NCBI GenBank assembly: GCA_938041035.1
Contig: CALHYX010000029.1
Coordinates: 130,150 to 194,149 of the forward strand
Direction of reading: 5' to 3'
DNA: 64,000 bases
Origin: an uncultured Acidimicrobiales bacterium
Lineage (GTDB): Bacteria > Actinomycetota > Acidimicrobiia > Acidimicrobiales > SHLQ01
Shown: one piece after another, positions 2,911 through 63,849 of the stretch
How positions within the stretch are numbered: the stretch's first letter is position 1
Layout of the letters: every line of letters begins with the position of its first letter
Notes under the pieces: generated by a model
The model's database searches: none
Seen by the model: the letters and a program-made list of their open reading frames with translations, nothing else
Told to the model about the DNA's origin: nothing
Program-made: the position numbers and the translations under genes

Positions 2911-5043
2911 ATGGTCTCTGCCGAGAACGCCGTCGAACCACCCCGCCCCTCGGTCGCCGAGGTGGGCGACGAGCTCGCCGCCCATGTGCGGGCGTTGGCC
3001 GGGCCCGACGCCGTACCTCGCCCCGAGCAGATCGCGGCGGTCGAAGCCGTCGTCGCCAACCGACAGCGCACGCTGCTCGTGGCCCGCACCGGCTTCGGGA
3101 AGTCGGCGGTGTACTTCTCGGCCACCCGGATGCTGCGCGATCGCGGCTGGGGGCCCACCGTGGTGGTCTCACCGCTTCTCGCTCTGATGCGCGACCAGGT
3201 CGCCGCCGCCGAACGCCTCGGCCTGGCGGCCGAGACGATCAACTCGTCGAATCTCGACCGCTGGGGCGAGATCGAAAGCCGGATCAACGCCGATGAGATC
3301 GACCTGTTGTTGATCTCGCCCGAACGCCTCGCCAACCAGGGATTCCGCGAGCGGGTGTTCGACGCTCTCATCGGGCAGGCGTTCGCCCTCGTATGCGACG
3401 AGGCCCATTGTATTTCGGACTGGGGCCACGATTTTCGGCCCGACTACCTGCGGCTGCGCGAGCTGATCGCCGGTCTGCCGGCCTGGACGCCGGTACTGGC
3501 CACCACCGCCACCGCAAACGCCCGGGTCACCGCCGACGTCGCCGCCCAACTCGGCGACGACACCCTGGTGCTGCGCACCAGCCTCGACCGGGCGTCCTTG
3601 CACCTGTCGGTGGTCGATCTCGCCACCGACGCCGAGCGCCTCGCCTGGCTGGCCGAGGCCCTTCCCGAGCTCGAGGGTTCGGGCATCATCTACTGCCTGA
3701 CGGTGGCTCAGGCCGAGGTCACCGCCGCCTGGCTGCGCGAACGCGGTTACCCGGTGGCGGCCTACACCGGCGCGACCGAGGCCGAACACCGACCGGCCCT
3801 CGAAGCCGGGCTCCGCGGCAACGAACTCAAGGCGCTCGTCGCCACCTCGGCCCTCGGCATGGGGTTCGACAAGGGCGACCTGGCGTTCTGTGTGCACCTC
3901 GGACTCCCGCCGTCGCCGGTGGCCTACTACCAGCAGGTGGGTCGGGCCGGGCGAGCCATCGACCGCGCCGCCGTGATCGCCGTGCCGCGCCCCGTCGAGG
4001 ACGCGGCGGTGTGGCGCTGGTTCGAACAGGTCAGCCTGCCCCCGGAGTCGACGTGTCGCGAGGTCCTCGACCAACTGCACGCGACCACACCGACATCGAT
4101 CGCGGTGCTCGAGACCTCGGTGAACCTCGGCCGAACCCGGCTCAACACCCTGCTCAGCATCCTCGACGTCGCCGGTGCGGTCGAGCGCACGAAGGGGGGC
4201 TGGATACTCGGCCGGCCGTGGAGTTACGACCACGACAAGGCCGAACGGCTGCGGGCACTGCGGCGGGTCGAGTCCGACGAGATGTTGGCCTTTGGCGCGC
4301 TCGACGGCTGCCGTCTGCGCTACCTACGCGAACGCCTCGACGACGCCGAGGCCGCCGACTGTGGTCGATGCGATCGCTGCCGGGGCGAGGTGGTGGAAAC
4401 CGTGCTGAACCCGGCCCTGGTGGCCGCCGCCCAGACGTTGTTGCGCGGCGAGGACGTGATCGTGGAACCGCGGCGCCAGTGGCCGACCGGCCTCGACGAA
4501 CCCAAAGGCAAGATCGGGCCGCCCGATCGGGCCGAGCCCGGGCGGGCGTTGTGTCGCCTCGGCGACGGCGGCTGGGATTCGGTCGTCACCGCGTTGATGG
4601 CGGCCGAGGAGGCGGGCGAAACCTCGTTGGAGCTGAGCGAGGAATTCCTCCGATCGATCGCCGGCGTCCTCAAACGCTGGCCCTGGGAGGCTCGCCCAAC
4701 CTGGATCTGCCCCGTCCCCAGCCGGCGGCGCCCGCTCCTGCTCGACCGGGTCTGCACCCACCTCGGGGCGCTCGGCAAACTGCCGGTTCACCCCGCACTC
4801 ACCCGCGTTGACGACGCCCGCGGCTGGCAGGCCGACCAGGCCAACAGCGCCCACCAGGTCGCCAACGTGTGGGGCGCGTTCGCCGTCGATGCCGCCGCCC
4901 TGCCCGCCCCGGCGCTCGCGAGCGGGCCCGTGCTGTTGATCGACGACGAGATCGACTCGCGGTGGACGATGACCGTGGCCGCGCATTTGCTGCGCGCCGC
5001 CGGAACGGGAGCGGTGCTGCCGTTTGCGTTGCGGACCCGTTGA
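2911..5043 (+). CDS. recQ: RecQ-family ATP-dependent DNA helicase with C-terminal ComF/GntX-like (degenerate phosphoribosyltransferase) domain
   Basis: Helicase motifs are ARTGFGKS (motif I), LVCDEAHCISDWGHDFRPDY (DEAH box) and YYQQVGRAGR (motif VI). A Zn cluster reads CGRCDRC. The C-terminal ~120 aa carries ComF-like blocks: ICPVPSRRRP, QANSAHQVANVWGAFAV, GPVLLIDDEIDSRWTMTVAAHLLRAAG. Confidence 0.9.
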   Translation: MVSAENAVEPPRPSVAEVGDELAAHVRALAGPDAVPRPEQIAAVEAVVANRQRTLLVARTGFGKSAVYFSATRMLRDRGWGPTVVVSPLLALMRDQVAAAERLGLAAETINSSNLDRWGEIESRINADEIDLLLISPERLANQGFRERVFDALIGQAFALVCDEAHCISDWGHDFRPDYLRLRELIAGLPAWTPVLATTATANARVTADVAAQLGDDTLVLRTSLDRASLHLSVVDLATDAERLAWLAEALPELEGSGIIYCLTVAQAEVTAAWLRERGYPVAAYTGATEAEHRPALEAGLRGNELKALVATSALGMGFDKGDLAFCVHLGLPPSPVAYYQQVGRAGRAIDRAAVIAVPRPVEDAAVWRWFEQVSLPPESTCREVLDQLHATTPTSIAVLETSVNLGRTRLNTLLSILDVAGAVERTKGGWILGRPWSYDHDKAERLRALRRVESDEMLAFGALDGCRLRYLRERLDDAEAADCGRCDRCRGEVVETVLNPALVAAAQTLLRGEDVIVEPRRQWPTGLDEPKGKIGPPDRAEPGRALCRLGDGGWDSVVTALMAAEEAGETSLELSEEFLRSIAGVLKRWPWEARPTWICPVPSRRRPLLLDRVCTHLGALGKLPVHPALTRVDDARGWQADQANSAHQVANVWGAFAVDAAALPAPALASGPVLLIDDEIDSRWTMTVAAHLLRAAGTGAVLPFALRTR

Positions 5044-5110
5044 ACATTTCGTTCGTTCGGTACGACCAGCGGTAGGGTCGCCACGCTCGCTACCCACGGT
5101 CGGAGGCTCG

Positions 5111-6754
5111 ATGCGACGAACATCGATGGGGCAGGAATCCCTGCCGGCGCTCGCCTTGTTGTCGGTCCTCGTGTTGGTCATGGCCGGCTGTTCGTCGAGC
5201 GGCGACTCGGCGAGCCCATCGACCTCGGCCACCGAATCCACACCGCCGTCGTCGCGCGCGGCGCCGACGACGACTCCCCCACCCCCGACGACCAGCGACC
5301 CGGAAACCGGTACAACCGCCCCGTCGAGCGACGGCGACCCGTTCACCCCGGCCACCCCCGAGGTGAGCGGCCCGATCGAAGCCGCCGGCCCCATCGTGCA
5401 ACCACAACCGGCCCTCGCCGCACCCGACGGCTTCGTCGAGGAGGAGTTCTTCATCGGGGGCGAGGCCACTCGCTTCGAGCTGGTCGGCGCCACCGAAACC
5501 GACGGTCGCTGGACCGCGGCACCAACCGAATCGGCGGCCTATCAGACCCGGGTCATCGTGCGTCGACCCCCCGCTGACCGCTTCACCGGCGTGGTGGTCG
5601 TCGAGTGGTTGAACGTGTCCGCCGGCGAGTCCGCCCCCGACTGGGCCTACGTCTCCGAGGAGATCGCCCGGGAGGGACACGCTTACGTGGCGGTGAGCGC
5701 CCAGGCGCTGGGCGTCGTCGGTGGCCAGGCGATCCTTTCGGTCGACGCCGACGACACCACCGGCACGGCTGCGCCGATCAACGATGGCGGGCTCGTCAAC
5801 CTCGATCCGGACCGCTACGGCACGCTCGACCACCCCGGCGACGCGTTTGCCTATGACCTCTTCACCCAGGTCGCCGTTGCGATTCGGACCGTCCCCGCGC
5901 TACTCGATGGCCTCGACGCGACCACGCTGGTCGCCATCGGCGAATCCCAGTCCGCCGGGTACCTCACGACCTACGTCAACGCCGTGCATCCGCTGAGCCG
6001 GGCGTACGACGCGTTCCTGGTGCACAGCCGCGGCGGAGGAGCGACCCCGATCGGCGGCCGGTTCGGCGAGGGGAATGACTTCGTGGACTCCGGCGTGACC
6101 GTGCGCGACGACCTGGACGAGCCGGTGTTCATCGTCGAGGCCGAGACCGACCTGACGTTGCTCGGCTATGCGAACGCCCGCCAGCCCGACACCGACACCA
6201 TCCGAACCTGGGAGGTCGCCGGCACCGCCCACGCCGATGCCCACACGTTCCGGGCAATCTTCGGCGGCCCCCGCGACGCCAGCCAGGGCTCGTTGATCGG
6301 GTGCCCCGGCCTGATCAACAGCGGACCGCACCACGAAGCCGTGCAGGCCGCCCTGCACCATCTGATCGACTGGGCCCGTGACGGCACCGCCCCGCCGGAA
6401 GCCGAACGACTTCAGCTCACCGACACCGATCCGGTTGCGATCGCCCGCGACGAGCGCGGCACCGCCCTGGGGGGAGTGCGCAACCCTCTCGTCGATGTCC
6501 CCGTGGTGATCACCACCGGTGACCCGGTGCGGTCCGCGCCCGAGATCGCGGCCGGATTCGAAGTGTGTGACCTGTTCGGTCAGACCCTCCCGCTCGACCA
6601 ACCGACCCTGGTCGAGCTGCACGGTTCGGCCGACGACTACGTCGCAGCGTTCACCGCCGCGACCACCGCCGCGGTGGAAGCGGGCTTCCTGCTGCCGGCC
6701 GATGCCGAGCAGCTCCTCGAGGAAGCCGAGCAGAATCGCGCCCTGTTCGGCTAA
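5111..6754 (+). CDS. secreted lipoprotein with Pro/Thr/Ser-rich linker and alpha/beta-hydrolase-like domain
   Basis: The ATG at 5111 is preceded by GGAGG. A lipobox is present (LVLVMAGCSS), followed by a PT-rich linker. The motif IGESQSAGYL resembles a nucleophile elbow. The track ORF starts earlier (5024) but overlaps the recQ end. Confidence 0.7.
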   Translation: MRRTSMGQESLPALALLSVLVLVMAGCSSSGDSASPSTSATESTPPSSRAAPTTTPPPPTTSDPETGTTAPSSDGDPFTPATPEVSGPIEAAGPIVQPQPALAAPDGFVEEEFFIGGEATRFELVGATETDGRWTAAPTESAAYQTRVIVRRPPADRFTGVVVVEWLNVSAGESAPDWAYVSEEIAREGHAYVAVSAQALGVVGGQAILSVDADDTTGTAAPINDGGLVNLDPDRYGTLDHPGDAFAYDLFTQVAVAIRTVPALLDGLDATTLVAIGESQSAGYLTTYVNAVHPLSRAYDAFLVHSRGGGATPIGGRFGEGNDFVDSGVTVRDDLDEPVFIVEAETDLTLLGYANARQPDTDTIRTWEVAGTAHADAHTFRAIFGGPRDASQGSLIGCPGLINSGPHHEAVQAALHHLIDWARDGTAPPEAERLQLTDTDPVAIARDERGTALGGVRNPLVDVPVVITTGDPVRSAPEIAAGFEVCDLFGQTLPLDQPTLVELHGSADDYVAAFTAATTAAVEAGFLLPADAEQLLEEAEQNRALFG

Positions 6755-9662: not shown

Positions 9663-12017
9663 TTAGCGGCGATGGTGGGCGGCCATGGCGATGACCGCCG
9701 CCTCGGCGCGTTCGAGGCTGAAGTGCTTGCGGACCGAGCGCTCACCAGCGTCGGCCAATGCGTTCCAACGGTCGTCGTCGCTGAGCAGAGCGACGACCTC
9801 GCGGGCGAACAGTTCGGGCGTGTCCCCGACGGCAACCGCCCCTTCGGCCTCGAGATCGGTACCCTCGACCGCCATCGTCGTCGCCACCACCGGTAGACCG
9901 TGGGCCAGCGAGCCGGTGACCTTGCCCTTCACCCCCGCCCCGTACCGCAGCGGCGCGATCGAGAGTCGGGCCGACGCGTACAGCGGTTCGAGGTCGGGCA
10001 CGAACCCGTGCACGATCACCCCATCGGATGCGAGCGCGCGAATCTCGTCGGGCATCTTGGAGCCGACCACGTGCAGGACCGTCGCGGGCAGCTTCTCGAC
10101 GATGAGGGGCAGAATGTCGCGCAGAAACCACCGCAGAGCGTCGGCGTTGGGCGGATGTTCGAAACCGCCCACGAACAACAGACCCGACCGTTCGGCCAGC
10201 GGCGCGGAGATAGCCGCCGGTTCATGCACGTTCGGCAGGACTTCGACCGGCGCGTCGGGACACAGCTCGGCCAGGAGCTCCTTCTCCGCCGAACTGCACA
10301 CCAGCGTGAGGTCGACCGATTCGATGGCCGCCAGCTCCTTGGTCCGGGTTTCCTCGTGATCGAAGCCGTAGGCCACCTCGCCGGTGAGTTCCAGCTCGCG
10401 CTGTTGGCGCAGAAAGTGCAGGTCGACGGTGTCGTAGATGATGGTGGCCTGCGGGCACAGCCGCTGCACCGCTCCGAGTTGAGCTTCGATGACCTCGAGC
10501 CGGCTGAGGATCACCAGGTCGAAGTCGGCACCACGAGACTCCAGAAAGGACTCGATCGACGACGCGTGCGGCCGGTGGATGACCTCGATGCCGACCCGCC
10601 GCAGCGCTGACGCGTACGGTTCGTCCTCGCGCAGGCTCTGCGGAGCAAGGGTCACCTGATAGTTCTGGCGGCGCAGGATGCCGAGGATGTTGCTCATCCG
10701 CACGGAACCGGAGTCCTGATCCGGGGTCGGCATGCGAGCGTCGATCACGAGCACCCGGCCGATGACACCGCGGTCCTTTTCCAGGTCGGGTCGGTCGCCG
10801 TGGGCTCGCCGACCGACAAACGCACCGGACCATTTGCGATAGAACGTACGCTCGCTGCGCCGCAGCGGGGCGTCAGCACCGATTGCGCCGCGCGTGGCGT
10901 AGGACCTTCCTTCGCGATGCACGACCACCGACTCCGGTTGGTACATCACCCGGAGACCCACCTCGGTCAGGCGCATGCACAGGTCGGTGTCCTCGTAGTA
11001 CGCCGGAGCAAACGCAACGTCGAAACCGCCGAGGGCCTGAAACGTGGTGCGGCGCACCAGCAACGACGCCCCGGACACGAAGTCGACCGGGCGGGCGTAG
11101 TTCACCTCGGGCGCATCGCTCGATCGTCCCCGGGCAAAGGCCTGGGCACCGCCGTTTCGCCAGATGATGCCGCCGGCCTCCTGCACCGAGCCGTCGGGAA
11201 GCACGAGTTTTGAACCGACGGCGCCGACATGGGTGAAGTCGGCGAACGTCTGCACCAGCGAATCGAGGGACCCGGCCATGATCTCGGTGTCGCTGTTGAG
11301 CAACCAGACGAACTCGCCGCGGGCGTGTTCGACCGCGCCGTTCACGTTGCGCAGAAAGCCGACGTTGGCCTCGTTGTCGACGATCCGCAGACCTTCGACC
11401 TCCCGGATCGGGGCGAACTCGGGCTCGGGCGTGGCGTCGTTGGCCACGATCACCTCCACGGCGACCTCGGGCGCATGCCGTTCGATCGAACGCAGGCAGG
11501 CGAGCGTGTCGTCGATCGCCCCGAAGACGGGCACGATGATGCTCACGAGCGGCGTCGCGGTCGTCGCGAGCACGATGGTGGGTGACTCGGGCGCCACGGT
11601 GGCCGACTCGATCATGGACGACCGGGCCACAAACTCGTCGATCACCCGTTGTCGGCGGCTGCGTTCCTCGGCGTCGACCGGCGGACGAGCGCCGGCCACT
11701 TCGCGCCGCAGGCGCATCATGCGCAGCCGGTGGGGGGCCGTGCGCACGGACCGAACCCGGCGCTGGGCGAACCGCTTGAATCGAAGCTGACGCCGCGTGA
11801 GTTCGTCGATCTGGTCGCGTTGGCGCCGGACCTGTTCGGCCAGGTCAGCCCGCTGAGCCTCGCCGACGGCGAGCAGATGGTCGCGTCGGGCCACCTCGGC
11901 CAGGAGATCCTCGCGGAGTTCGGCCAGCTGTCGGCGGGTGGGAGCATCCGCCGGATCACCCGGTTCGGCGCCCGATGCATCTGCTGGTTCGGCGCCTGAT
12001 TCGCGCTCGTGGCCCAT
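9663..12017 (-). CDS. multidomain glycosyltransferase: N-terminal coiled-coil, GT2 domain, GT4 (GT-B) domain
   Basis: The ATG at 12017 overlaps the upstream stop (TGATG). The N-terminal ~130 aa are Arg/Glu/Leu-rich heptad-like sequence. The GT2 block is VSIIVPVFGAIDDTLACLRSI...NSD. The GT-B block runs VLVIDARMPTPDQDSGS ... FVGGFEHPPNADA ... GAGVKGKVTGSLAHGLPVV. Confidence 0.85.
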   Translation of the reverse strand: MGHERESGAEPADASGAEPGDPADAPTRRQLAELREDLLAEVARRDHLLAVGEAQRADLAEQVRRQRDQIDELTRRQLRFKRFAQRRVRSVRTAPHRLRMMRLRREVAGARPPVDAEERSRRQRVIDEFVARSSMIESATVAPESPTIVLATTATPLVSIIVPVFGAIDDTLACLRSIERHAPEVAVEVIVANDATPEPEFAPIREVEGLRIVDNEANVGFLRNVNGAVEHARGEFVWLLNSDTEIMAGSLDSLVQTFADFTHVGAVGSKLVLPDGSVQEAGGIIWRNGGAQAFARGRSSDAPEVNYARPVDFVSGASLLVRRTTFQALGGFDVAFAPAYYEDTDLCMRLTEVGLRVMYQPESVVVHREGRSYATRGAIGADAPLRRSERTFYRKWSGAFVGRRAHGDRPDLEKDRGVIGRVLVIDARMPTPDQDSGSVRMSNILGILRRQNYQVTLAPQSLREDEPYASALRRVGIEVIHRPHASSIESFLESRGADFDLVILSRLEVIEAQLGAVQRLCPQATIIYDTVDLHFLRQQRELELTGEVAYGFDHEETRTKELAAIESVDLTLVCSSAEKELLAELCPDAPVEVLPNVHEPAAISAPLAERSGLLFVGGFEHPPNADALRWFLRDILPLIVEKLPATVLHVVGSKMPDEIRALASDGVIVHGFVPDLEPLYASARLSIAPLRYGAGVKGKVTGSLAHGLPVVATTMAVEGTDLEAEGAVAVGDTPELFAREVVALLSDDDRWNALADAGERSVRKHFSLERAEAAVIAMAAHHRR

Positions 12018-45245: not shown

Positions 45246-46211
45246 ATGGTCGCCCAGGTCGATAAGGCAACGCTGCGCATCGCACCCGCGACCGCGCTCC
45301 AGCGCGTCGTGTCACGCCTGCTCTTCGAGGGCCACTCGGCAACGGCTGGTCACCAGTACCTCAACCGCATCACCGGAACGAACCTGGCGTTGGCCGCCGC
45401 CGGGCGCCTGCCCACCCGGCCGATCGAGCGGCCGATCTTCATCCTCGGCATCGGGCGCAGCGGCACGACGCTTTTGGGCAAGTTGCTGGGCGTGACCCCC
45501 GGCCTCGCGTATTGCAATGAGGGCAAGGCGATCTGGGCCCAGGCGATTCGGGACGAGGACGTCCAGGGCTGGTTCCAGGAGACCGGCCGCTACCGCCTCG
45601 AGCCCGACTCGGTGAGCGCGGAGGAGACCCTTCGGCTCCACCGTCAGTACGGCTGGTTCCTGGCGATGCTGCGGGCCGAGCGGATCATCGAGAAGTATCC
45701 CGAGTGCACCTACCGGGTGCCCTACATCCGTTCGGCGTTTCCCGACGCCCGGGTGGCCGCCATCGTTCGTCATCCGGGCGATGTTGCGGTCTCGATCGCC
45801 CGCTACGAGGAGGCGAACGGCTCCGATGAGGCCACCTGGTGGGGTCGGGGTGACGCCAAATGGACGGTGATGTGCACGGAGTTCGCCGCCGTCGCCGACC
45901 CCGTGGTGCTCGCGCACATGGTGCCCGAGGCTGATCCCCAGACGCGAGGCCTCGTCGAATGGGTGCTCGGGATGGAGACCTTGCGCCGCAGCGAACTCGA
46001 CGCCTGGATCAGCTATGACCGGTTGTGCGCCGGGCCGACCGCCATCGCCGCGCTCTGCGATCGGCTCGAGATCACCGACCCATCGCGCCCGTTGGCTTAT
46101 CACCGCGAGATCGTGGCCCCGACGCCGGTCGCGTACGACCACTCGATCGATGGGCCGCTGATGACCCACGCCCAGGCGCTCTACGACGAGCTGGCGGCGC
46201 GCAGCCTGTAG
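45246..46211 (+). CDS. sulfotransferase family protein
   Basis: The 5'-PSB-like P-loop is IFILGIGRSGTTLLGKLLG, and later blocks are RIIEKYPECTYRVPYI and IVRHPGDV. The family call is moderately supported. Confidence 0.75.
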   Translation: MVAQVDKATLRIAPATALQRVVSRLLFEGHSATAGHQYLNRITGTNLALAAAGRLPTRPIERPIFILGIGRSGTTLLGKLLGVTPGLAYCNEGKAIWAQAIRDEDVQGWFQETGRYRLEPDSVSAEETLRLHRQYGWFLAMLRAERIIEKYPECTYRVPYIRSAFPDARVAAIVRHPGDVAVSIARYEEANGSDEATWWGRGDAKWTVMCTEFAAVADPVVLAHMVPEADPQTRGLVEWVLGMETLRRSELDAWISYDRLCAGPTAIAALCDRLEITDPSRPLAYHREIVAPTPVAYDHSIDGPLMTHAQALYDELAARSL

Positions 46212-46212
46212 G

Positions 46213-46929
46213 TCAACGATTCGCGTTGCCGCGATCGATGGCGCCATCGTCGACGGGGCCTTCGTCGAGGGGGACGGGATAAATCACCTTGATCACCCCG
46301 ATCGCCACGGCGGTGGCGATGAGTTGGGCGAGGATGAAACCGGGAACCGACGCGGGTTCGATACCGGCGAAGGTGTCGGAGAACGTACGGGCCACGGTGA
46401 CGGCGGGGTTGGCGAAACTGGTCGACGAGGTGAAGTAGTAGCCGCAGGCGATGTAACCGCCCACCGCGTAGGCGACCTGCGACGCTCTACCCGATCGCAC
46501 GACCGCGAAGATCACGATCAACAGACCGAGGGTGGCGATGCCGTCGGCGAACACGAGGTGCCCGGCGGATCGGTCCTTGGTGGACCACTCGACCGCGGGC
46601 AGGTCGAACATGATGTTGGCGATGACGACCCCGAGGATGCCGCCGGACACCTGGGCGACAATGTAGCCCGCCGCGGTTCCCGAGTCCATGCCCCCAAACG
46701 CGCGATCCATCAACGTGACCGCGGGGTTGAAGTGCGCGCCGGAAACGGTCGCGAACGCCAGGATCAAGGCGATGAGCACCCCGGCGGTGGCCAAAGTGTT
46801 CTGGAGCAATTGCAGGCCGACGTCGCTGCTCAGGTTCTCGGCCATGATGCCCGAGCCGACGACGCCGGCGAGCAGGAATGCCGTGCCGACGAACTCGGCG
46901 AAGAGCTTGGAGATGAGTTGCGGCTTCAC
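46213..46929 (-). CDS. MIP-family channel (aquaporin/aquaglyceroporin, AqpS-like context)
   Basis: The GTG at 46929 overlaps the stop of the upstream aroK-arsC gene (GTGA). There are two NPA boxes (SGAHFNPAVTL, SFANPAVTVAR) and six TM helices. The track ORF extends spuriously to 47133. Confidence 0.88.
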   Translation of the reverse strand: MKPQLISKLFAEFVGTAFLLAGVVGSGIMAENLSSDVGLQLLQNTLATAGVLIALILAFATVSGAHFNPAVTLMDRAFGGMDSGTAAGYIVAQVSGGILGVVIANIMFDLPAVEWSTKDRSAGHLVFADGIATLGLLIVIFAVVRSGRASQVAYAVGGYIACGYYFTSSTSFANPAVTVARTFSDTFAGIEPASVPGFILAQLIATAVAIGVIKVIYPVPLDEGPVDDGAIDRGNANR

Positions 46930-47930
46930 GGCGCCGTCCCGTCCAACTCGGCGAGCAGGGCGACCACATGGCCGCGGATTTCGTCGCGCACCCGGCGCAC
47001 GAGTTCGACTCCTTCGCCGGCGGGATCCGTGAGCTCCCAGTCGAGATAGCGCGTCCCCGGGTACACCGGGCAGGTGTCGCCGCAGCCCATCGACACGACC
47101 ACATCGACGGCGCGCACCATGTCGTCGGTCCACTTCTGCGGTTCGGCGTCGGTGATGTCAATGCCCACCTCGGCCATCACCTCGACCGCGACGGGGTTGA
47201 CCTCGGCCGCCGGGTTTGATCCGGCGGAGTACACCGCGACCCGCCCGGCACCGAGATGGCGGAGCCAGCCGGCCCCCATCTGGGAGCGTCCGGCGTTGTG
47301 GACGCAGAGAAAGAGCACGCCCGGCCGGTTGATCTCGACCGGAGGCGCGGCCAGCAGCTGCGCGATCTCGGCGGCGACCTCTTCGGGCGACGAACCGTCG
47401 GTGGCGACCTGCGCGAAGCGGGCGTAGTCGGGCTGGCGTTCCTTGAGGAGCGCGCGCACGCGGCCGGCGGGGTCGGGGCCGGTGAGCAGCGGGCGCACCA
47501 CCTCGGACTCATCGTCGGTGACCCGGGCGACGATCTCGTCGACGGCCGCGGTAAGACAGAAAATCCGTCCCGTTCGACCGAGCGCCTCGTGGTTCTTCGG
47601 GTCGAGCATCAGCCGTCCGCCGGTGGCGATCACCAGCCCGGAGCGGGCGCCGAGTTCGGTGGCGACCTCGTTTTCGAGGGCCCGGAACTCGGCTTCACCA
47701 CGTTGGGCGAAGATGTCATCGATGGGGCCATGGCGTTGCTCGATGAGTTCGTCGGTGTCGACAAACTCGAGGCCCAGAAGATCGGCGAGCAGGCGGCCGG
47801 TCGAGGTTTTGCCGGTACCCATGAACCCGGTGAGGACGACGTTCCCACCCGGCGGAGCCGCGGTTGGGTCGGCGGAGTCGGGGTCGTCGCTCGGGGGCGG
47901 CGGTGGAGCCATCACGTGAGGGTAGGCCAC
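46926..47930 (-). CDS. fusion protein: shikimate kinase (N-terminal) and LMW-PTP-type arsenate reductase ArsC (C-terminal)
   Basis: The N-terminal half carries GFMGTGKTSTG (Walker A), VDTD, ATGGR and RPLL. The C-terminal half carries LFLCVHNAGRSQMGAGW (a CX5R P-loop), YSAGS and SMGCGDTCP. The reading frame is continuous. The start is GTG at 47930 or ATG at 47912. Confidence 0.85.
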   Translation of the reverse strand: MAYPHVMAPPPPPSDDPDSADPTAAPPGGNVVLTGFMGTGKTSTGRLLADLLGLEFVDTDELIEQRHGPIDDIFAQRGEAEFRALENEVATELGARSGLVIATGGRLMLDPKNHEALGRTGRIFCLTAAVDEIVARVTDDESEVVRPLLTGPDPAGRVRALLKERQPDYARFAQVATDGSSPEEVAAEIAQLLAAPPVEINRPGVLFLCVHNAGRSQMGAGWLRHLGAGRVAVYSAGSNPAAEVNPVAVEVMAEVGIDITDAEPQKWTDDMVRAVDVVVSMGCGDTCPVYPGTRYLDWELTDPAGEGVELVRRVRDEIRGHVVALLAELDGTAP

Positions 47931-47948
47931 GGCGCATAACGTGGGGGT

Positions 47949-48392
47949 ATGACCCGCCAGATCCTGGTGCTCAACGGCCCCAACCTGAACCTGCTCGGCA
48001 CCCGCGAACCCGAGATCTATGGCACCGACACGCTGGCCGACATCATCGGCGAACTACGCACGTACGCAACGACGCTCGCCGTGGCGGTGCGCGATACGCA
48101 GTCGAACAGCGAGGGGGCGCTGATCGACGCGCTGCACGAGGCGCGGGGCTGGGCCGACGCGGTCGTGTTCAACCCGGGGGCGTACACGCACTACAGCTAC
48201 GCGTTGCGCGACGCGATCACCGCGTGCGAGCTTCCGGTGGTCGAGACGCACCTGTCGGACCCGTCGACGCGCGAGGCGTTCCGCCACGTCTCGGTGCTCG
48301 CCGAGGTGTGCATCGCGACGGTCGCCGGGTTGGGCAAGCAGAGCTACTTCGTCGCCCTCGACACTGCGCTGGCCCACCTCGAAGCGAGCTGA
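47949..48392 (+). CDS. aroQ: type II 3-dehydroquinate dehydratase
   Basis: The blocks ILVLNGPNLNLLGTREPEIYG, QSNSEGALID, NPGAYTHYSYALRDA and VETHLS are canonical AroQ motifs. Confidence 0.93.
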   Translation: MTRQILVLNGPNLNLLGTREPEIYGTDTLADIIGELRTYATTLAVAVRDTQSNSEGALIDALHEARGWADAVVFNPGAYTHYSYALRDAITACELPVVETHLSDPSTREAFRHVSVLAEVCIATVAGLGKQSYFVALDTALAHLEAS

Positions 48393-49038: not shown

Positions 49039-49785
49039 TCAGACCTTGACGACCGCCGAGTTCACCACCATGTCGTGCCAGGTGCGTTTCTCTCCGTCCC
49101 AGAGCATCCAGAGGTAGCCGAGGTACAGGACCTGTCCGGAGATAAAACCGGCGAACAGAAAGCGGCCCAGCGCCGCCCAGGTCGAGAGTAGCCCTCCGGT
49201 GCGCGAACTGATCACCTTGATGTTGGCCACCCGGCGCCCGATGGTCTGGCCCGACTTCGCCACCGGGCGGACGGCGATGAAGAAGACGATGACCAGATAG
49301 ATCAGACTCCACACCGCCAGGAGCCCCAACCACAGCAGCGCGGTTTCATCGGTCGGTTGTTCGCAGGTGTAGCTGGTGCCGTCGAGGTCGGTACAGATGC
49401 GATCTTCGAAGGTCGAGTTCATGACCGCGTAGATCACGAACGGGATACCGGCCAACACCGCCAACAGTCCAACGATCAGCCCGTCGATCAACCAGCCACC
49501 GAGACGGGCGCCGAACCCCGCGCGCTCGAGGTGGGCCGTCGGACCCGCCGCGTAGCCGAGCGGTGGATACGGACCTCCGGGCGGTGGTGGATAGCCCTGG
49601 TTGGGATAGCCCTGGTTGGGATAGCCCTGGTTGGGATAGCCCTGGGGTGGCGGCGGTGGATAGCCCTGGGGTGGGGGTGGTGGATAGCCCTGGGGTGGCG
49701 GCGCCGGATAGCTCTGGTGGGCGTAGCCGGGAGGCTCGTGGGATGGCTCGGTCGGTGGTTGCGCTCCCGCGGGCGTGTCGCTCAT
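49039..49785 (-). CDS. RDD-family membrane protein with Pro/Gln/Gly/Tyr-repeat N-terminus
   Basis: The start is ATG at 49785. The N-terminus contains 3x PPPPQGYP and 3x NQGYP. The RDD-type core is GFGARLGGWLIDGLIV ... GQTIGRRVANIKV ... TWHDMVVNSAVV. The 527-aa track ORF is over-extended. Confidence 0.85.
   Translation of the reverse strand: MSDTPAGAQPPTEPSHEPPGYAHQSYPAPPPQGYPPPPPQGYPPPPPQGYPNQGYPNQGYPNQGYPPPPGGPYPPLGYAAGPTAHLERAGFGARLGGWLIDGLIVGLLAVLAGIPFVIYAVMNSTFEDRICTDLDGTSYTCEQPTDETALLWLGLLAVWSLIYLVIVFFIAVRPVAKSGQTIGRRVANIKVISSRTGGLLSTWAALGRFLFAGFISGQVLYLGYLWMLWDGEKRTWHDMVVNSAVVKV
49589..49728. repeat. in-frame coding tandem repeats (3 x 15 nt, then 3-4 x 24 nt)
   Basis: ggatagccctggttg x3 lies at 49589-49633. 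ggatagccctggggtgg(c/g)gg(c/t)gg(t/c) x3 lies at 49634-49705, followed by a degenerate fourth unit. These encode the NQGYP and PPPPQGYP repeats. Confidence 0.9.
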
Positions 49786-49820
49786 GCTCCACGGTACGAC
49801 GCATCGGCGGCGCCGTCGCG

Positions 49821-50873
49821 CTATTGCTCCAGATGGGTGCGGGATCGATCGAAGTCGCTCACGCGGTTGAGTTCGGCCAGGTCGTCGGCCGGCAGGGTGC
49901 GATCGAGACCGTCGAGGGTGGCGGTGAGTTGGGCGACGGTGTTCGCTCCCACGATGGGCGCGGAGACGAACGGCCGGGACCGGTTCCACGCGATCGCCGC
50001 GTTTGCCGGGGTCATGTCGTTGCGCCCGGCGACGGCGACCAGGGTTTCGATGATGTCGTAGTTCTGCTCGCTGAACTTCGCCGAGTTCTCCTCGGCGCGT
50101 TCGCTGTCGGGCAGGTCCTGGCCCCGTCGGTACTTGCCGGTGAGCAGACCGCCTCCGAGCGGGCTGTAGGGGACGACGCCGATGCCGTAGGTGGTGCAGA
50201 CGGCGGCGAGCTCGTCCTCGAACCGTCCCCGCACGGGCGCGAGCAGGTTGTACTCGGGTTGGATGCTGATGATCGGCTCGAAGCCGCCGACATCGATGGC
50301 CCAGAGGGCCTGCATCAACCGCCAGGCGCTGAAGTTCGAGACACCGATGTAGCGGACGAGGCCCCGCCGCACGAGGTCGCTGAACGCCGCGAGCGTCTCC
50401 TCGATCGGCACGAGCGGGTCGAGAAAGTGGGCCTGGTACAGGTCGATGTGGTCGACCCCGAGTCGGCGCAGGCTGTCCTCGCACGCCTGGCGAATCCACC
50501 GCCGCGACAGCCCCTCGCGTTGGGTGAACGAGGCGCGGGTGTCGCAAAAGCCGACCCCCATCGCCGCGCGCACCTTGGTGGCGATGACCATGTCGTCGCG
50601 GTTTCCCCGAGCTGCCAACCAACGCCCGATGATCTCCTCGGATACGCCACCTGGGTTCTCGGGGCCGCCCATCTCATGGGACCACGCGGTGTAACAGTCG
50701 GCGGTGTCGATGAAGTTCCCGCCCGCCGCGGCGTAGGCGTCGAGCAGCTCGAACGAGCGTTCCTCATCCGCTGTCCAACCGAACTGCATGGTGCCGAGCC
50801 CGACGCGGTAGACGACGAGTCCGCTGTTTCCGAGCTGTACGTAGGGGTCGAGGGTGGTCGCTCCGAAGCTCAT
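49821..50873 (-). CDS. aldo/keto reductase
   Basis: The start is [32 protein letters not shown], preceded by GAAAGGAAG. The AKR blocks [14 protein letters not shown] and IGVSNF are present. Confidence 0.9.
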
Positions 50874-58737: not shown

Positions 58738-59550
58738 ATGGTCAGCGATGAACGAATCGAGCGAACGGCCGAACATCTCGGGGCACGTGTGCGCGGTGTC
58801 GACCCGACCACGATGGCCGCCGACGAGCTGTCGGCACTCCTCGCCGAACATCACGTCCTGGTGTTCGACCCGTGCGGCCTCGACGACGCCGACCAGCAGG
58901 CGCTGCTCGACACCATCGGCGAGGCCTACATCCATCCGCTCGCGCTCCTGGTGGGTGCCGATACCGCTCGATGCGGCCACATCGTCGACGACGCCGACCA
59001 CCCGCCGTATCAGGACGGCTGGCACACCGATGTCACGTGGGACCCGAACAAGCCCCACATCGGCAGCCTCCGGGCCATCGAGATGCCACCGGGCCTCGGC
59101 GACACCGTGTGGGCCAACATGCACGTCGCGTACGAAGCGCTGAGCGATGAGCTGAAGCGTCGGATCGAGCCGCTGACCGCCGTGCACGGCATGGGCGTCG
59201 GCACCGCCTTCATCACCAAGACCAGCGCCGAACTGGTCGATCGCGCCCGCGAGGCCTACCCCGGCGTCGAGCGACCGGTGGTCGGCACCCACCGCTCAAC
59301 CGGACAGCCGTACCTGAACGTGAACTCCGCCTTCACCGAGCGCCTGGTCGGGCTCGACCCCACCGAGGGCGACGCCTTGCTGGCCGAGCTCTACGCCCAC
59401 ATCGCCGACGAACGTTGGCACTACCGGCACGCCTGGACCGAGGGCGAGCTGGTGATCTGGGACGAAGAGTCAACCCAGCATCGAGCCACCGCCGAGCATT
59501 ATCCGCAGCGGCGCGAGATGTCGCGCTACGCCATCCGACAGCCGGCATGA
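58738..59550 (+). CDS. TauD/TfdA-family Fe(II)/2-oxoglutarate dioxygenase
   Basis: The HxD iron motif sits in WHTDVTWDPNKPHIGSLRAIEMPPGLGDTVWANM. The C-terminal block is VIWDEESTQHRA. Confidence 0.88.
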   Translation: MVSDERIERTAEHLGARVRGVDPTTMAADELSALLAEHHVLVFDPCGLDDADQQALLDTIGEAYIHPLALLVGADTARCGHIVDDADHPPYQDGWHTDVTWDPNKPHIGSLRAIEMPPGLGDTVWANMHVAYEALSDELKRRIEPLTAVHGMGVGTAFITKTSAELVDRAREAYPGVERPVVGTHRSTGQPYLNVNSAFTERLVGLDPTEGDALLAELYAHIADERWHYRHAWTEGELVIWDEESTQHRATAEHYPQRREMSRYAIRQPA

Positions 59551-60458
59551 TCCGCGCCATCGGCCGTTCCCTGCGCTCCATCGTCACCGACGACATGACG
59601 ATGCTGGCGATCCCCGGGTTCTTCGCCACGATGGGGCTCGAGTACGCCGCGCTTCGCCGCAACCGCGACGCGCTGGTCGACATCGGCGACCCGACGACGG
59701 AGTCCAACGTCGATCGCCCGCTCGGCTACGAGACCCGCGACACGCTCGCCAGCCTGGCGATGGGCACCGGCATGTTGGCCGTCGGCGTGGCCGCCGCCAA
59801 CGTCCTCCAACCGCTCGATCGGTGGTTGTACGGCAAACGGATGGCGTCGCTCGGTGCCCGCCGACTCGGCTTTGTCGGCGCGGTCGTCGCGTGGGACTTC
59901 TTCTACTACTGGGATCACCGGTGGGGGCACGAGCATCGGCTGTTCTGGGCCGCCCACGTCAACCATCATTCGAGCCAGCGCTACAACCTCAGCACGGCGC
60001 TGCGGCAGTCGTGGACCGGCGTGATGATGCACTGGGTTTTCACCCCGATGTTCCTGATGGGCTTCACCCCCACCCAGGTGGCCAGGGCCGGCGAGCTCAA
60101 CCTGCTCTACCAGTACTGGGTCCACACCGAGGCGATCGACAAGCTGCCGGCCGCGGTCGAGTCGGTGTTCAACACCGCCTCGCACCACCGGGTGCACCAC
60201 GGCGCCAACCCGCAGTACCTCGACCGCAATTACGCCGGCATCTTCATTATTTGGGACCGCCTCTTCGGGTCGTTCGAGCCCGAGGGCGAACGGGTGCGCT
60301 ACGGGTTGACCAAGAACATCACCAGCCACAACCCCGTCCATGTCGCCTATCACGAGTGGGCGGCGATGATTCGCGACGTGGTCGGCGCCGACACGTGGCG
60401 CGACCGAGTGGGCTTTACCCTCGGGCCACCGGGCTGGTCGCCGGTCGCGGCCGCCTAG
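59547..60458 (+). CDS. sterol desaturase / fatty-acid hydroxylase superfamily membrane protein
   Basis: The ATG overlaps the tauD-like stop (ATGA). The His boxes are HRWGHEH, HVNHHSS and HHRVHHG. There are 3-4 TM helices. Confidence 0.85.
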   Translation: MIRAIGRSLRSIVTDDMTMLAIPGFFATMGLEYAALRRNRDALVDIGDPTTESNVDRPLGYETRDTLASLAMGTGMLAVGVAAANVLQPLDRWLYGKRMASLGARRLGFVGAVVAWDFFYYWDHRWGHEHRLFWAAHVNHHSSQRYNLSTALRQSWTGVMMHWVFTPMFLMGFTPTQVARAGELNLLYQYWVHTEAIDKLPAAVESVFNTASHHRVHHGANPQYLDRNYAGIFIIWDRLFGSFEPEGERVRYGLTKNITSHNPVHVAYHEWAAMIRDVVGADTWRDRVGFTLGPPGWSPVAAA

Positions 60459-60467
60459 CGGGTCCGC

Positions 60468-61364
60468 TTACGCGCTTCGAAGCTGACGCTTCAGGACCCC
60501 GGCCCGTCGGCGGGCGCCGCGGAGTTTGCGTTTCGAGTACCGGCGGGCGTTGATCGATCGCCGGGTGAGGTCCTCGGGGAGCCGACGAAGTACCCGATCC
60601 GGGCGCGGAATCGTGCGGGCGAGGGGACGGCACACGATGACGCTGTTGCGATACGCCTTGTCGATCGCCATGCTCGGCCGGCGAATCTCCGCTGCGAAGC
60701 CGACCTCGCTCAAGACGTCGAGCACATCGAGCCCGAAGTCGGTGAAGACCAGACTGGGTTCACCCCCCGGGCTCTCGTGATACACCGGCTCCAGGTCGTG
60801 AACCACCTCGCCGTCGATGATCGCGCACCGGGTTACCGACTTGGGCCGGGGCGGCCACGGGAACGGCACCGAGAAGATGTGGACGCCGTCCGGGCGCAGA
60901 ACGCGGTGTACTTCCGAGAACGCCTTCGCCGGGTCGGGTACATGTTCGAGCACATGGCTGCTGGTGACCAGGTCGAATCGGTTGGCCCCGAACGACAGTC
61001 GAAGAAGGTCCTCGTTGCGATGCTGACCCCGGATCTCGCCGGGTTCGGCGTCGACCACGTAGTTCGACTGGGTGTAGTCCTCCAGCCGGGCCAACCACTT
61101 GCGGGTATGACCACCGATACCGACGTTGTAGACGGCCTTGCCGGCAAAGTTTGGATCGGCGATCAACGAGCGCATCGACAGATGGGCGCCTCCGCCAAAG
61201 ACCTCCACGATCGCGGCTGCCTCGTTGCGAAAGCGAAGCGGCGCGTCACATTCCGGGCAGGCGTACGCCCGGGCGATCAGGAACGCGGGTGCCTCTCCAA
61301 AGGCAAACTCTCCGACGGCTCCGCAAAGATTGCAGACGCCGCTGTATGCGGGTTTGGACGTCAT
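60468..61364 (-). CDS. class I SAM-dependent methyltransferase with N-terminal Cys4 zinc-ribbon and basic C-terminal tail
   Basis: The Cys4 pattern is CNLCG...CPEC. The Methyltransf_11-like block is FDLVTSSHVLEHVPDPAKAFSEVHRVLRPDGVHIF. The tail is RRSINARRYSKRKLRGARRRAGVLKRQLRSA. There are three in-frame ATGs (61403, 61391, 61364); the last has the best RBS. Confidence 0.8.
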   Translation of the reverse strand: MTSKPAYSGVCNLCGAVGEFAFGEAPAFLIARAYACPECDAPLRFRNEAAAIVEVFGGGAHLSMRSLIADPNFAGKAVYNVGIGGHTRKWLARLEDYTQSNYVVDAEPGEIRGQHRNEDLLRLSFGANRFDLVTSSHVLEHVPDPAKAFSEVHRVLRPDGVHIFSVPFPWPPRPKSVTRCAIIDGEVVHDLEPVYHESPGGEPSLVFTDFGLDVLDVLSEVGFAAEIRRPSMAIDKAYRNSVIVCRPLARTIPRPDRVLRRLPEDLTRRSINARRYSKRKLRGARRRAGVLKRQLRSA

Positions 61365-61466
61365 CGCTCTTTCCCGTGGTCCTGTTGCCATCCCGCCGAC
61401 CATGACCGATGGTACCGACCGCCACCCGCGTCAGCCAGAGGGCCGTTCCTTGAGGACTCCTGTCGT

Positions 61467-62807
61467 CTATTGCTCCTCGCCGAGCGACAGATTGAACCGG
61501 GTCCTGGCGACCTCGCCGGTCGCGACCAGTTCCGATTCCGCCCGGGCCGACGCAAAGATGCCTTTCGCCATCAGCGATCGCTCGGCTTTGCGGCGCGCCT
61601 CATAGATCTCGGCGCGCCGCCCGTGCACCGAGACCGAGGTCGGTTCGGCATCACCGGCGAACTGGGCGAGATGGCAGGCCAGCCGGTGTTCGCCCGCTTC
61701 GCTGAGCTCCTGCGCCCGGGCGATCAGTGCCTCCGCGCCGCCCGCGAGCCTGGCCAGCTCCGCTGCCAGATCGGCATCCGGCGCCGGCTTCAGGCGCGCC
61801 GGGTTGCCATCCCACCAGCCGCCGTAGAGCCGCCAGATATTGCGCACCACGAACTCGGGCTCGTCATAGAGCGGACGCAGGAACGGCAGGGCCAACACGT
61901 CGGGGTCGACCCGAACCGAGTGGACGATCGCGTCGAGCGGGGCCCCGGAGTTCATGGCGTCGAGCACGTCGGCCACGAGGGTTTCGAGCGCCGTGGCCGA
62001 AACGTCGAGGCACATGCGGATGCGCTCGAAGCCGGCGATGGGCAACCCGTGGGCCGGGACCAGCAGTTCGGGCTCACAGGCGATCATCGCTCGCAGCGCT
62101 TCGGCCCACTCGCTCGGGTACCGCTGCACTTTCTGCGGATTGCCGCAGTTGGGAAAGTTCCACATGAACAGGTCGCCGCAGCTGATCATCTTGAGCGCCG
62201 GTATCCACGTCCAGGTGTGGTCGTCGGTCTCGCCGCGGGCGTGACGGAGGTCGAACTCGAGCCCGCCGACGCTCTCGCGATGCGTGTCGGTGTAGGTGAG
62301 GTCCGGGCGCAGAACCTCAGCCGGCAGAAACCGAGCGTCACCGCCGACACCCACCTCACCGACCGGGGAGCGGGGCACCCCGCCGAACTGTCGGAGGTTG
62401 ATGGCCAGGTTGTAGCCGTTGGTGAGGTCGTATCGGTCGAGCCGGGGCGTGACCGCCTCGTGTCCGATGACCCGCGGGGCCGGTCGCCCCTGAGCCTCGG
62501 CCTCGACGGCGAAGGCCGGGCTACCGCCAACGTGATCGGCATGGCCGTGGGTGTACACCAGGCTGTGTACCGGGTCCGAGCTCCAGGTGCGGAGGGCTCC
62601 GACCACCGCTGGACCCTTCCGTTCGCTGCTGCTGTCGAAGGCGACGAGGCCATCGTCGGTGCGCACGGCGACGACATGGCTGAACGACTCGACGATGGCG
62701 ACACCGTCGGCGATCTCGCTCAGCTCTTCGGTGATCCGGTTCGATGGTTCATCGGTGATCCGCTCGTCGATGAGGCGGGCGGCAAGATCGGTAAGGGATT
62801 CGCTCAT
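61467..62807 (-). CDS. MBL-fold alkyl/aryl-sulfatase-like hydrolase lacking the SCP2-type C-terminal domain
   Basis: The metallo-beta-lactamase motif is YTHGHADHVGG. The alkyl-sulfatase dimerisation-domain block is LRPLYDEPEFVVRNIWRLYGGWWDGNP. At 446 aa it ends before where an SCP2 domain would sit. The start is ATG at 62807. Confidence 0.8.
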   Translation of the reverse strand: MSESLTDLAARLIDERITDEPSNRITEELSEIADGVAIVESFSHVVAVRTDDGLVAFDSSSERKGPAVVGALRTWSSDPVHSLVYTHGHADHVGGSPAFAVEAEAQGRPAPRVIGHEAVTPRLDRYDLTNGYNLAINLRQFGGVPRSPVGEVGVGGDARFLPAEVLRPDLTYTDTHRESVGGLEFDLRHARGETDDHTWTWIPALKMISCGDLFMWNFPNCGNPQKVQRYPSEWAEALRAMIACEPELLVPAHGLPIAGFERIRMCLDVSATALETLVADVLDAMNSGAPLDAIVHSVRVDPDVLALPFLRPLYDEPEFVVRNIWRLYGGWWDGNPARLKPAPDADLAAELARLAGGAEALIARAQELSEAGEHRLACHLAQFAGDAEPTSVSVHGRRAEIYEARRKAERSLMAKGIFASARAESELVATGEVARTRFNLSLGEEQ

Positions 62808-62808
62808 G

Positions 62809-63849
62809 TCAGGCTCGCGTCCGCTTGGCCGACCAGTGACTCGTCGCGCCGGCCTTGGCAAAGCGCGGCGGACGGTCCTCGTCGGCCAGGACATCGGTGG
62901 CCAACCAGAGTCGCTTCAGGAATCGCACCCGGCCGCTCTCGGGGTCGTCGACGTAGGACCGACGCCCGTGGAGCACGTGGTAGTTGTTGATGAATTGGGC
63001 GTCGCCGGGGGCGAAGGTCATCTCGACATGGAAATCGGGGTTCTTCACAAACGCGTCGTATGCGTCCATGGCCTCGAGCTGCTGGTCGGTGAGGCGCGGC
63101 GCATCGTCGTGGCGTTGCGACGCCTGGATGTACGGGCGGATGTAGCGCACGAACAGCCGGTCGCCGTGGCGGGTGAAGGCGGGCACGAAATAGAAACCGC
63201 GACCCCCTTCGGCCTGCTCACCGCGGAAGTCGTACGGGAGCGGCTCGTACAGCACGGCGGCGAGATCCGGACGGGTTCGCACCAGCTCGTTGTGGGCGGC
63301 GAGCGCATTGGAAATCATGCTTTCGCCACCGCTCACCCCCGTCTGCAGGCACAGGAGTCCAACGAGGTCGGATCCGTCGCTGTGAAAGGTCTGGCCAACA
63401 CCGCCGAGCTCGTTGCCGCGAGCGGTTGGGTCGTCCGGGCTCTTGCCCTGATCGCGCACGTCGCCAAGCAGATGACCCTTGACGTTCTGCGGCCATGGCA
63501 CACCCAGGTGCAGGCCGATACCCCAGTACATCCAGGACGCATCATCATGTCCGACCCGTTCGACCGGGATGCCGCTGATTCGGGCGAAGCCGCGACCGTC
63601 GATCAACTCTCGCTCGATGCCGCGCAGGATCGGTCCGAGGGTCGGTAGCGGAAAGTCGCCGAGACGAACGTCGAGCACTTCGTCGTGCGCAGCTCGGGCG
63701 ACGGCGAGCGCGGCGTCGAGTTCACCGACCTGGTCGGGGTCGAGCACCAGGGTCCAGGCCGATGCGTCGGCGACATCATCCGCCCGCCACTCGGCATGGG
63801 TCTCGAGCGGCGCGACCTCGGCCGCCGTCATCGTCGGTGCGTCGGTCAT
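62809..63849 (-). CDS. TauD/TfdA-family Fe(II)/2-oxoglutarate dioxygenase (second, divergent member)
   Basis: The HxD motif sits in QTFHSDGSDLVGLLCL. The C-terminal block is FINNYHVLHGRRSY. The start overlaps the upstream stop (ATGA at 63846-63849). Confidence 0.8.
   Translation of the reverse strand: MTDAPTMTAAEVAPLETHAEWRADDVADASAWTLVLDPDQVGELDAALAVARAAHDEVLDVRLGDFPLPTLGPILRGIERELIDGRGFARISGIPVERVGHDDASWMYWGIGLHLGVPWPQNVKGHLLGDVRDQGKSPDDPTARGNELGGVGQTFHSDGSDLVGLLCLQTGVSGGESMISNALAAHNELVRTRPDLAAVLYEPLPYDFRGEQAEGGRGFYFVPAFTRHGDRLFVRYIRPYIQASQRHDDAPRLTDQQLEAMDAYDAFVKNPDFHVEMTFAPGDAQFINNYHVLHGRRSYVDDPESGRVRFLKRLWLATDVLADEDRPPRFAKAGATSHWSAKRTRA

Follow-up and report, generated by a model that had tools for sequence, protein, structure and literature searches.

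We describe a gene in a 64,000-nucleotide stretch of a metagenomic contig from an uncultured Acidimicrobiales bacterium (assembly GCA_938041035.1, contig CALHYX010000029.1, positions 130,150 to 194,149 of the forward strand; the stretch is called the window below) that joins a shikimate kinase (SK, AroK) in frame to a thioredoxin-type arsenate reductase (ArsC). The gene is flanked on one side by a divergently oriented aroQ gene and on the other by a gene encoding a channel of the MIP family. Residue numbering throughout is that of a 334-residue version of the protein that starts at an alternative GTG codon at 47930. The features of the locus, in window coordinates, are these:

46213..46929, minus strand: MIP-family channel gene, 238 aa (Pfam MIP, 7.4e-23; the same gene call is made in a second contig, L001, described below)
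46926..47912, minus strand: aroK-arsC fusion gene, 328 aa from the ATG at 47912, stop codon at 46926-46928
46929..47318, minus strand: arsenate reductase module, aa 205-334, low-molecular-weight protein tyrosine phosphatase (LMW-PTP) fold (Pfam LMWPc; alignment to 3T38)
47319..47345, minus strand: linker and junction, aa 196-204, PPVEINRPG, about 9 residues (comparison with the AroK tails or linkers and the ArsC N-termini of relatives)
47346..47843, minus strand: shikimate kinase module, aa 30-195 (Pfam SKI; alignment to the Mycobacterium tuberculosis SK entries 1L4U and 4Y0A)
47844..47912, minus strand: Pro/Asp-rich low-complexity N-terminal extension, MAPPPPPSDDPDSADPTAAPPGG (translation; comparison with P0029 and P0108)
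47913..47948, no strand assigned: divergent intergenic region, 36 bp, with back-to-back -10-like TANNNT boxes (sequence inspection)
47949..48392, plus strand: aroQ, type II 3-dehydroquinate dehydratase (Pfam DHquinase_II, 1.4e-54, 184 bits; NCBIfam above cutoff)

The minus-strand open reading frame (ORF) at 46926..47930 comprises 334 codons from the GTG with no internal stop, in both the ORF list and the sequence. An earlier note on this DNA had described one unbroken 334-codon frame encoding two complete modules, an N-terminal shikimate kinase and a C-terminal arsenate reductase of the LMW-phosphatase fold, and the ORF check and the Pfam matches bear this out. The frame exists to its full extent, but its likely start is the ATG at 47912, which shortens the protein to 328 residues. 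This ATG is more likely the start than the GTG at 47930 because database gene calls (P0001 and P0121, 328 aa) use it and a TANNNT box lies 6 nt upstream. The profile search that the note had proposed gave two matches, both above the Pfam cutoffs and with zero overlap: SKI at aa 37-193 (133 bits, 1.4e-38, cutoff 22.1), covering profile positions 1-158 of 159, and LMWPc at aa 205-326 (59.1 bits, 7.4e-16, cutoff 23.2). The translation contains the motifs GFMGTGKTSTG, VDTD, ATGGR and RPLL, followed by LFLCVHNAGRSQ, YSAGS and SMGCGDTCP. The note's placing of the gene between a divergent aroQ and a translationally coupled MIP gene was also correct: Pfam identifies both neighbors, and the GTG start of the MIP gene overlaps the TGA stop of the fusion gene (GTGA).

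The fusion protein falls in a 90% protein cluster having only two members. The second (P0121, 328 aa) is encoded with the same open frame on a 4,466-bp ENA metagenome contig (ERZ6864144; L001), which has the gene order of the window: carbonic anhydrase, aroQ, fusion, MIP channel, sulfotransferase. The contig differs from the window by three single-nucleotide polymorphisms (SNPs) in 4,466 bp and was therefore separately assembled. One SNP, at 47494 (codon 47493-47495; L001 position 1678), changes R146, an arginine of the kinase LID, to histidine in the L001 allele. The other two give E145D in AroQ (48383) and a synonymous change in an ADH-like gene (44961). On the available evidence the fusion is real, and an artefact unlikely, because two separately assembled contigs carry it. 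Moreover, none of the three coding parts (SK, ArsC and MIP) is an outlier among the 46 other genes of the window in GC content of third codon positions or in synonymous codon usage (z = 0.4-0.8), which argues against both a chimeric join and a recent foreign origin. Recent horizontal acquisition of the ArsC-MIP pair was considered and set aside, there being no compositional signal of it in codon usage.

Upon alignment with the M. tuberculosis enzyme (MtSK), K41 and T42 of the kinase half correspond to K15 and S16 of the Walker A motif and D58 and D60 to D32 and D34 of the D-T-D motif. The shikimate-binding arginines R58 and R136 of MtSK are matched by R83 and R165, and R146 of the RPLL motif is the equivalent of the LID arginine R117. 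The sole deviation is in the shikimate-binding GGG loop (MtSK G79-G81), which reads G104-G105-R106. This GGR sequence looks typical of the lineage rather than degenerate, because it is common to related Acidimicrobiia AroK and AroK-AroB proteins (P0044, P0029 and P0076 among them). The kinase half as a whole is 60-65% identical to Acidimicrobiia AroK and AroK-AroB proteins, and the N-terminal extension MAPPPPPSDDPDSADPTAAPPGG is missing from most stand-alone AroK relatives.

The reductase half has a CX5R(S/T) P-loop (C209-VHNAG-R215-S216), a resolving-type cysteine pair (C283 and C287 in CGDTC) and a DP motif. Its best relative of solved structure is Corynebacterium glutamicum ArsC1' (Cg_ArsC1', PDB 3T38), with 49% identity over 130 ungapped residues (5.5e-41), and Cys88, Cys162 and Cys166 of 3T38 align with C209, C283 and C287, so that the P-loop cysteine and the CX3C pair coincide exactly. 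Villadangos and colleagues reportedly assigned these Cg_ArsC1' cysteines roles in an intramolecular disulfide relay in 2011. Judged from these alignments, the reductase belongs to the actinobacterial CX3C (Cg_ArsC1'-like) subgroup of thioredoxin-type ArsCs and not to the pI258 or Synechocystis subgroups. Hence, the collinearity with Bacillus and Staphylococcus ArsC asserted in the earlier note holds at the level of the fold only, the closest characterized enzyme being that of C. glutamicum. The closest ArsC relatives and Cg_ArsC1' carry a three-helix domain, Phosphatase-like_N (PF21234), ahead of the catalytic domain. This domain gave no Pfam match in the fusion protein, where a complete SK occupies its position, unlike in Cg_ArsC1'. 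Short ArsCs devoid of any N-terminal domain also exist, as in locus L010. The ArsC half shares 76% identity with the PF21234-type ArsC of locus L003 (P0036). Derivation of this half from the ArsR-LMWPc fusion gene that precedes the MIP gene in L003 was rejected, the identity being 33% versus 76% to the PF21234-type ArsC.

The earlier note put the junction near nt 47330 with no stop, and comparison with relatives mapped the breakpoint to about nt 47328 (between aa 201 and 202, approximately), likewise with no stop codon. The SK-derived tail extends to about VEIN; in relatives, too, the last SK helix is followed by a Pro-containing tail or linker, and the segment AAPPVEIN resembles these. The native ArsC N-terminus begins at about RPG-VLFLC, which matches the N-termini of free-standing ArsCs such as MSRPS-VLFVC. 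With the two blocks of homology only about 9 residues apart, a stop codon, a spacer and a start codon could not be hidden between them. Exactly at the junction lies a GC-rich, terminator-like hairpin with T-rich sequence after it (47320-47343, minus strand), which was considered as a relic of an aroK terminator and dismissed: its stability is unremarkable (z = -1.8; 12 of 200 shuffled sequences fold as well), and the T-run encodes the Leu-Phe-Leu of the conserved ArsC strand.

The setting of the kinase half is shared with another Acidimicrobiales metagenome-assembled genome (GCA_020439465.1; locus L095), in which a minus-strand SK gene lies 22 bp from a plus-strand aroQ, followed by a gene for an RDD protein and, a few genes on, one for an aldo-keto reductase, as in the window. 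Because of this shared divergent SK/aroQ synteny, we take the kinase half to be the native aroK of the locus. The L095 kinase (P0076, 4088-4978, 296 aa, 60% identical) has a C-terminal extension in place of ArsC, and no ars genes accompany that aroK/aroQ pair. The extension is weakly AroB-like (31% identity over 112 aa to an AroK-AroB protein). C-terminal extensions are frequent among the kinases of this clade and consist of AroB, AroE, GNAT or tails having no assigned domain. Many Acidimicrobiia SKs (P0076, P0129, P0137, P0139, P0140, P0142, P0162 and P0226; 296-354 aa) have a C-terminal region of about 120-170 aa with no Pfam match. These long proteins may be decayed AroK-AroB fusions, as the P0076 tail weakly resembles the N-terminal part of AroB.

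In the spacer between the fusion gene and aroQ, the box 6 nt ahead of the fusion ATG is TACCCT and that 6 nt ahead of the aroQ ATG is TAACGT. A TANNNT -10 box is the consensus of actinobacterial leaderless promoters. The L095 aroK/aroQ spacer (4979-5000, 22 bp) likewise has TANNNT boxes 6 nt upstream of each start codon, and a scan of 47913-47948 with the sigma-70 consensus gave no promoter. The arrangement suggests overlapping back-to-back leaderless promoters kept in two lineages whose proteins are about 60-70% identical. Even the nearest AroQ relatives reach only about 71% identity, and thus the lineage is one that lacks close sequenced relatives.

The product of the MIP gene is a putative As(OH)3 exit channel. 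It is a divergent member of its family, weakly similar to AqpZ and NIP channels, and is 62-74% identical to MIPs that adjoin ArsC in loci L003, L010 and L040. A MIP gene adjoins arsC in 34 of the 80 loci listed from a scan of species-representative genomes (which gave at least 80) and in 35 of 43 metagenome loci. The ArsC-then-MIP order of the window recurs in L010, L040, L025 and L022, with neither SK nor aroQ nearby in any of them; in L010 the two genes have a 4-nt stop/start overlap, and the ArsC and MIP proteins are 71% and 74% identical to those of the window. In L003 genes for an ArsR-LMWPc protein, a MIP and an ArsC stand in a row. An arsC gene with an overlapping MIP gene is thus a widespread stand-alone cassette in Actinomycetota. 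The L003 locus is itself a compact arsenic island of the closest ArsC relative (4600-6645: ArsR-HTH-LMWPc fusion, MIP, PF21234-ArsC), with genes for ArsR, an ArsP permease, a Thioredoxin_3 protein and a DUF2180 protein about 3 kb beyond the ArsC (9675-11536). In the window a sulfotransferase gene (45246-46211) lies directly beyond the MIP gene.

We think it likely that the gene is a genuine lineage-specific fusion in which an ArsC-MIP cassette became joined in frame behind the native aroK and that its product is bifunctional, with halves that work independently. Behind this reading stand the observed domain architecture and intact residues, the presence of the gene on a second contig, the shared synteny and the frequency of the cassette. 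Of the two alternatives offered in the earlier note, capture of an ars module in an aro locus is favored by the L095 aroK/aroQ pair, which has no ars genes, and by the frequent stand-alone occurrence of ArsC followed by MIP; for the other, real cross-talk between kinase and arsenate, we found nothing in support.

From these observations we infer the order of events, the enzyme activities, the independence of the halves and the promoter as follows. In the simplest history an in-frame join at about nt 47328 would have set the cassette directly behind aroK. The join would have removed the end of aroK, which relatives have as a short tail or as an extension resembling AroB, and also either the first few arsC codons or the N-terminal helical domain, leaving the linker of about 9 residues. 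The kinase half would phosphorylate shikimate independently of the ArsC half. Arsenate would enter through phosphate transporters and be reduced at Cys209, a relay from Cys209 to Cys283 to Cys287 would resolve the intermediate, and thioredoxin would recycle the enzyme. As(OH)3 would then exit through the translationally coupled MIP channel, as in AqpS-type systems (PMC6205960, PMC9775063). The main consequence of the join would be regulatory, in that the leaderless aroK promoter would drive both ArsC and MIP, and no ArsR gene is found nearby. Cg_ArsC1' is thioredoxin-dependent and constitutively expressed (PMC6514093), and the fusion gene resembles it in having no repressor near it. By analogy, ArsC and MIP are probably expressed constitutively together with aroK and provide low-level arsenate detoxification.

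Several points weigh against this reading. The NCBIfam shikimate kinase and arsenate reductase models listed for the respective halves all score under their equivalog cutoffs. The best SK equivalog score is 133.9 bits versus a cutoff of 204 (PRK13947, PRK13948 and others), with models tuned to other lineages, and the reductase half scores 74.9 bits versus 174.3 for arsC_pI258_fam (TIGR02691) and 90.8 bits versus 157.6 for ars_reduc_gluta (TIGR02689). The R146H allele hints that constraint on the kinase may be less than strict, and as a single observation it could also be a consensus error. The L001 and window contigs may stem from the same study and so share a systematic error. In the absence of PF21234 the oligomeric state and kinetics of the ArsC half may differ from those of its relatives. 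Finally, the search for ars, aro and thioredoxin neighbors covered 64 kb of the 224,694-bp contig, and within that window no ArsR gene, other ars gene, thioredoxin gene or further aro gene (including aroB) was found.

Several of these points would also fit a different account, in which the kinase half, a redundant copy or one in decay, acts chiefly as an N-terminal scaffold in place of PF21234 and the housekeeping SK, for example an AroK-AroB protein, is encoded elsewhere. PF21234 holds the very position of the SK in the closest ArsC relatives, related Acidimicrobiia commonly have AroK-AroB fusions, one SNP of the three between the contigs turns a catalytic LID arginine into histidine and aroB is missing from the window. 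We consider this account unlikely, however. The window allele keeps every catalytic and substrate-binding residue of the SK, the change from GGG to GGR looks lineage-wide and also occurs in AroK-AroB proteins, the gene has normal codon usage and holds the conserved aroK position beside aroQ, and short ArsCs such as that of L010 argue that a scaffold is not required.

A second alternative is that the halves are functionally coupled, with ArsC making the kinase sensitive to redox state or arsenic, shielding it from arsenate or dephosphorylating shikimate-3-phosphate. Fused domains are often functionally linked, arsenate is an analogue of phosphate, ArsCs of the LMW-PTP fold keep weak phosphatase chemistry and a linker of about 9 residues means that the domains must be close together. 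We nonetheless regard coupling as quite improbable. Within the reach of the searches the fusion is confined to a single species-level lineage, whereas a coupling of real use should have arisen repeatedly or spread, and this singleton distribution argues against a strongly advantageous one. A complete triad of redox cysteines and a coupled MIP of the ars type speak for ordinary arsenate reduction, both partners are fusion-prone (SK with AroB, AroE and GNAT; ArsC with ArsR, Acr3, MIP and ArsN) and a full-text literature search found no other arsenic-shikimate link. The adaptive form of the idea, in which the redox or arsenic state of ArsC gates SK activity and aromatic amino-acid flux or ArsC locally protects an arsenate-sensitive kinase, seems to us very improbable. 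As for adjacent aroK and arsC genes only seemingly joined through an error of sequencing or assembly, the sequence does come from a metagenome-assembled genome and the protein cluster has but two members, yet we give this the slightest of chances given the separately assembled L001 contig with three differences and an identical open frame, a junction that leaves no space for a stop codon, spacer, start codon and ArsC N-terminus, two halves that share one frame and a uniform codon usage and a preserved stop/start overlap with the MIP gene.

The earlier note did not recall this architecture as described, and within the reach of our searches none was found elsewhere. The searches report best-ranked matches, and fusions less than about 40% identical in both halves (below about 155 bits in total) would escape them; so could fusions that are not cluster representatives, the query's own 50% cluster being represented by a non-fusion protein. 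Among the best 120 matches from 5.8 billion 90% protein clusters the sole full-length match was the fusion itself, the rest matching a single half. A phmmer search across all 1.84 billion representatives gave no two-domain SKI and LMWPc protein among the best 150 matches (down to 155 bits). Candidates that appeared to span the junction or to match in two stretches were rejected upon inspection. P0129 (query aa 23-257) is an SK followed by a C-terminus having no assigned domain, P0203 (query aa 29-257) is an SK joined to shikimate dehydrogenase (AroE), P0127 and P0128 (about 350 aa), which matched in two stretches, are LMWPc-PF21234-LMWPc proteins, and P0132 and P0237 have LMWPc and no SKI. A scan of 185,579 species-representative genomes gave only the ArsC half among the matches listed (80 loci). 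No match to the junction peptide was found in JGI metagenomes. There a looser pattern (RPLL...CxHNAGRSQM), for which the gene of the window was recovered as positive control, gave 43 ordinary ArsC loci, none of which (0 of 43) had an SK domain. A full-text literature search found no paper describing an SK-ArsC fusion, and the reviews list none. The SKI plus LMWPc architecture thus appears undescribed and, within the reach of these searches, is confined to one species-level lineage.

Both partners are well known in other company. ArsC is fusion-prone, the recorded forms being ArsR-, Acr3-, AqpS- and ArsN-ArsC proteins (PMC6205960); they include MIP/AqpS-ArsC of Salinispora and Frankia and Acr3-ArsC of M. 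tuberculosis (PMC6205960, PMC9775063). As in these proteins, a small ArsC domain is joined to another protein, and arsenite export by an aquaporin-type channel would follow the same resistance logic. Among the nearest relatives of the ArsC half, both ArsR-LMWPc fusions and ArsC-MIP operons occur. The described fusions have an arsenic regulator, transporter or accessory enzyme as partner, whereas here the partner is a housekeeping biosynthetic kinase. Unlike in the MIP/AqpS-ArsC proteins, the channel remains a separate, translationally coupled gene. The arsR-aqpS-arsC-arsH operon of Sinorhizobium meliloti offers a functional parallel in that arsenate is reduced inside the cell by ArsC and As(III) leaves down its gradient through an aquaglyceroporin-like channel rather than through ArsB or Acr3 (PMC6205960). 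It differs in ArsC class and gene order and has ArsR and ArsH, neither of which is found here, and the MIP of the window is divergent. On the kinase side, the protein has the plan of the Acidimicrobiia AroK-AroB, AroK-AroE and AroK-GNAT proteins and of P0076: an N-terminal SK, a short Pro-containing linker and a second domain of about 120-350 aa. The position beside aroQ is shared with P0076 and the GGR motif is common to the multidomain SKs of the class. It departs from them in having as partner an arsenate reductase, which is not an enzyme of the shikimate pathway, and a downstream channel gene.

The fusion is best explained as a lineage-specific accident that joined two fusion-prone and well-understood modules, with no new mechanism in evidence. 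Its value is modest: it adds the SKI plus LMWPc domain architecture to the list of ArsC fusions and would be a natural example of how an in-frame join hard-wires a resistance cassette to a housekeeping promoter with loss of the repressor. In annotation the protein should be named as bifunctional with neither half discarded. It should not be taken as evidence of a mechanistic link between shikimate and arsenic, and would gain greater weight only if the halves influence each other; coupling or protection, if true, would tie arsenic stress to the shikimate pathway in a way not known before.

Two other regions of the window deserve brief mention. Beside the carbonic anhydrase gene, the gene for the RDD-family membrane protein (49039-49900, minus strand) encodes a long Pro/Gly/Tyr-rich N-terminal region through tandem repeats at 49589-49730, a perfect 15-bp repeat (3.8 copies) and an imperfect 24-bp repeat (about 4 copies), corresponding to NQGYP and PPPPQGYP. 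The mechanical ORF of this gene continues into the aldo-keto reductase gene in another frame. Farther on, an organosulfur-related cluster (58738-63849) encodes two TauD-family dioxygenases and an alkyl-sulfatase-like metallo-beta-lactamase protein and has no apparent link to the fusion gene.

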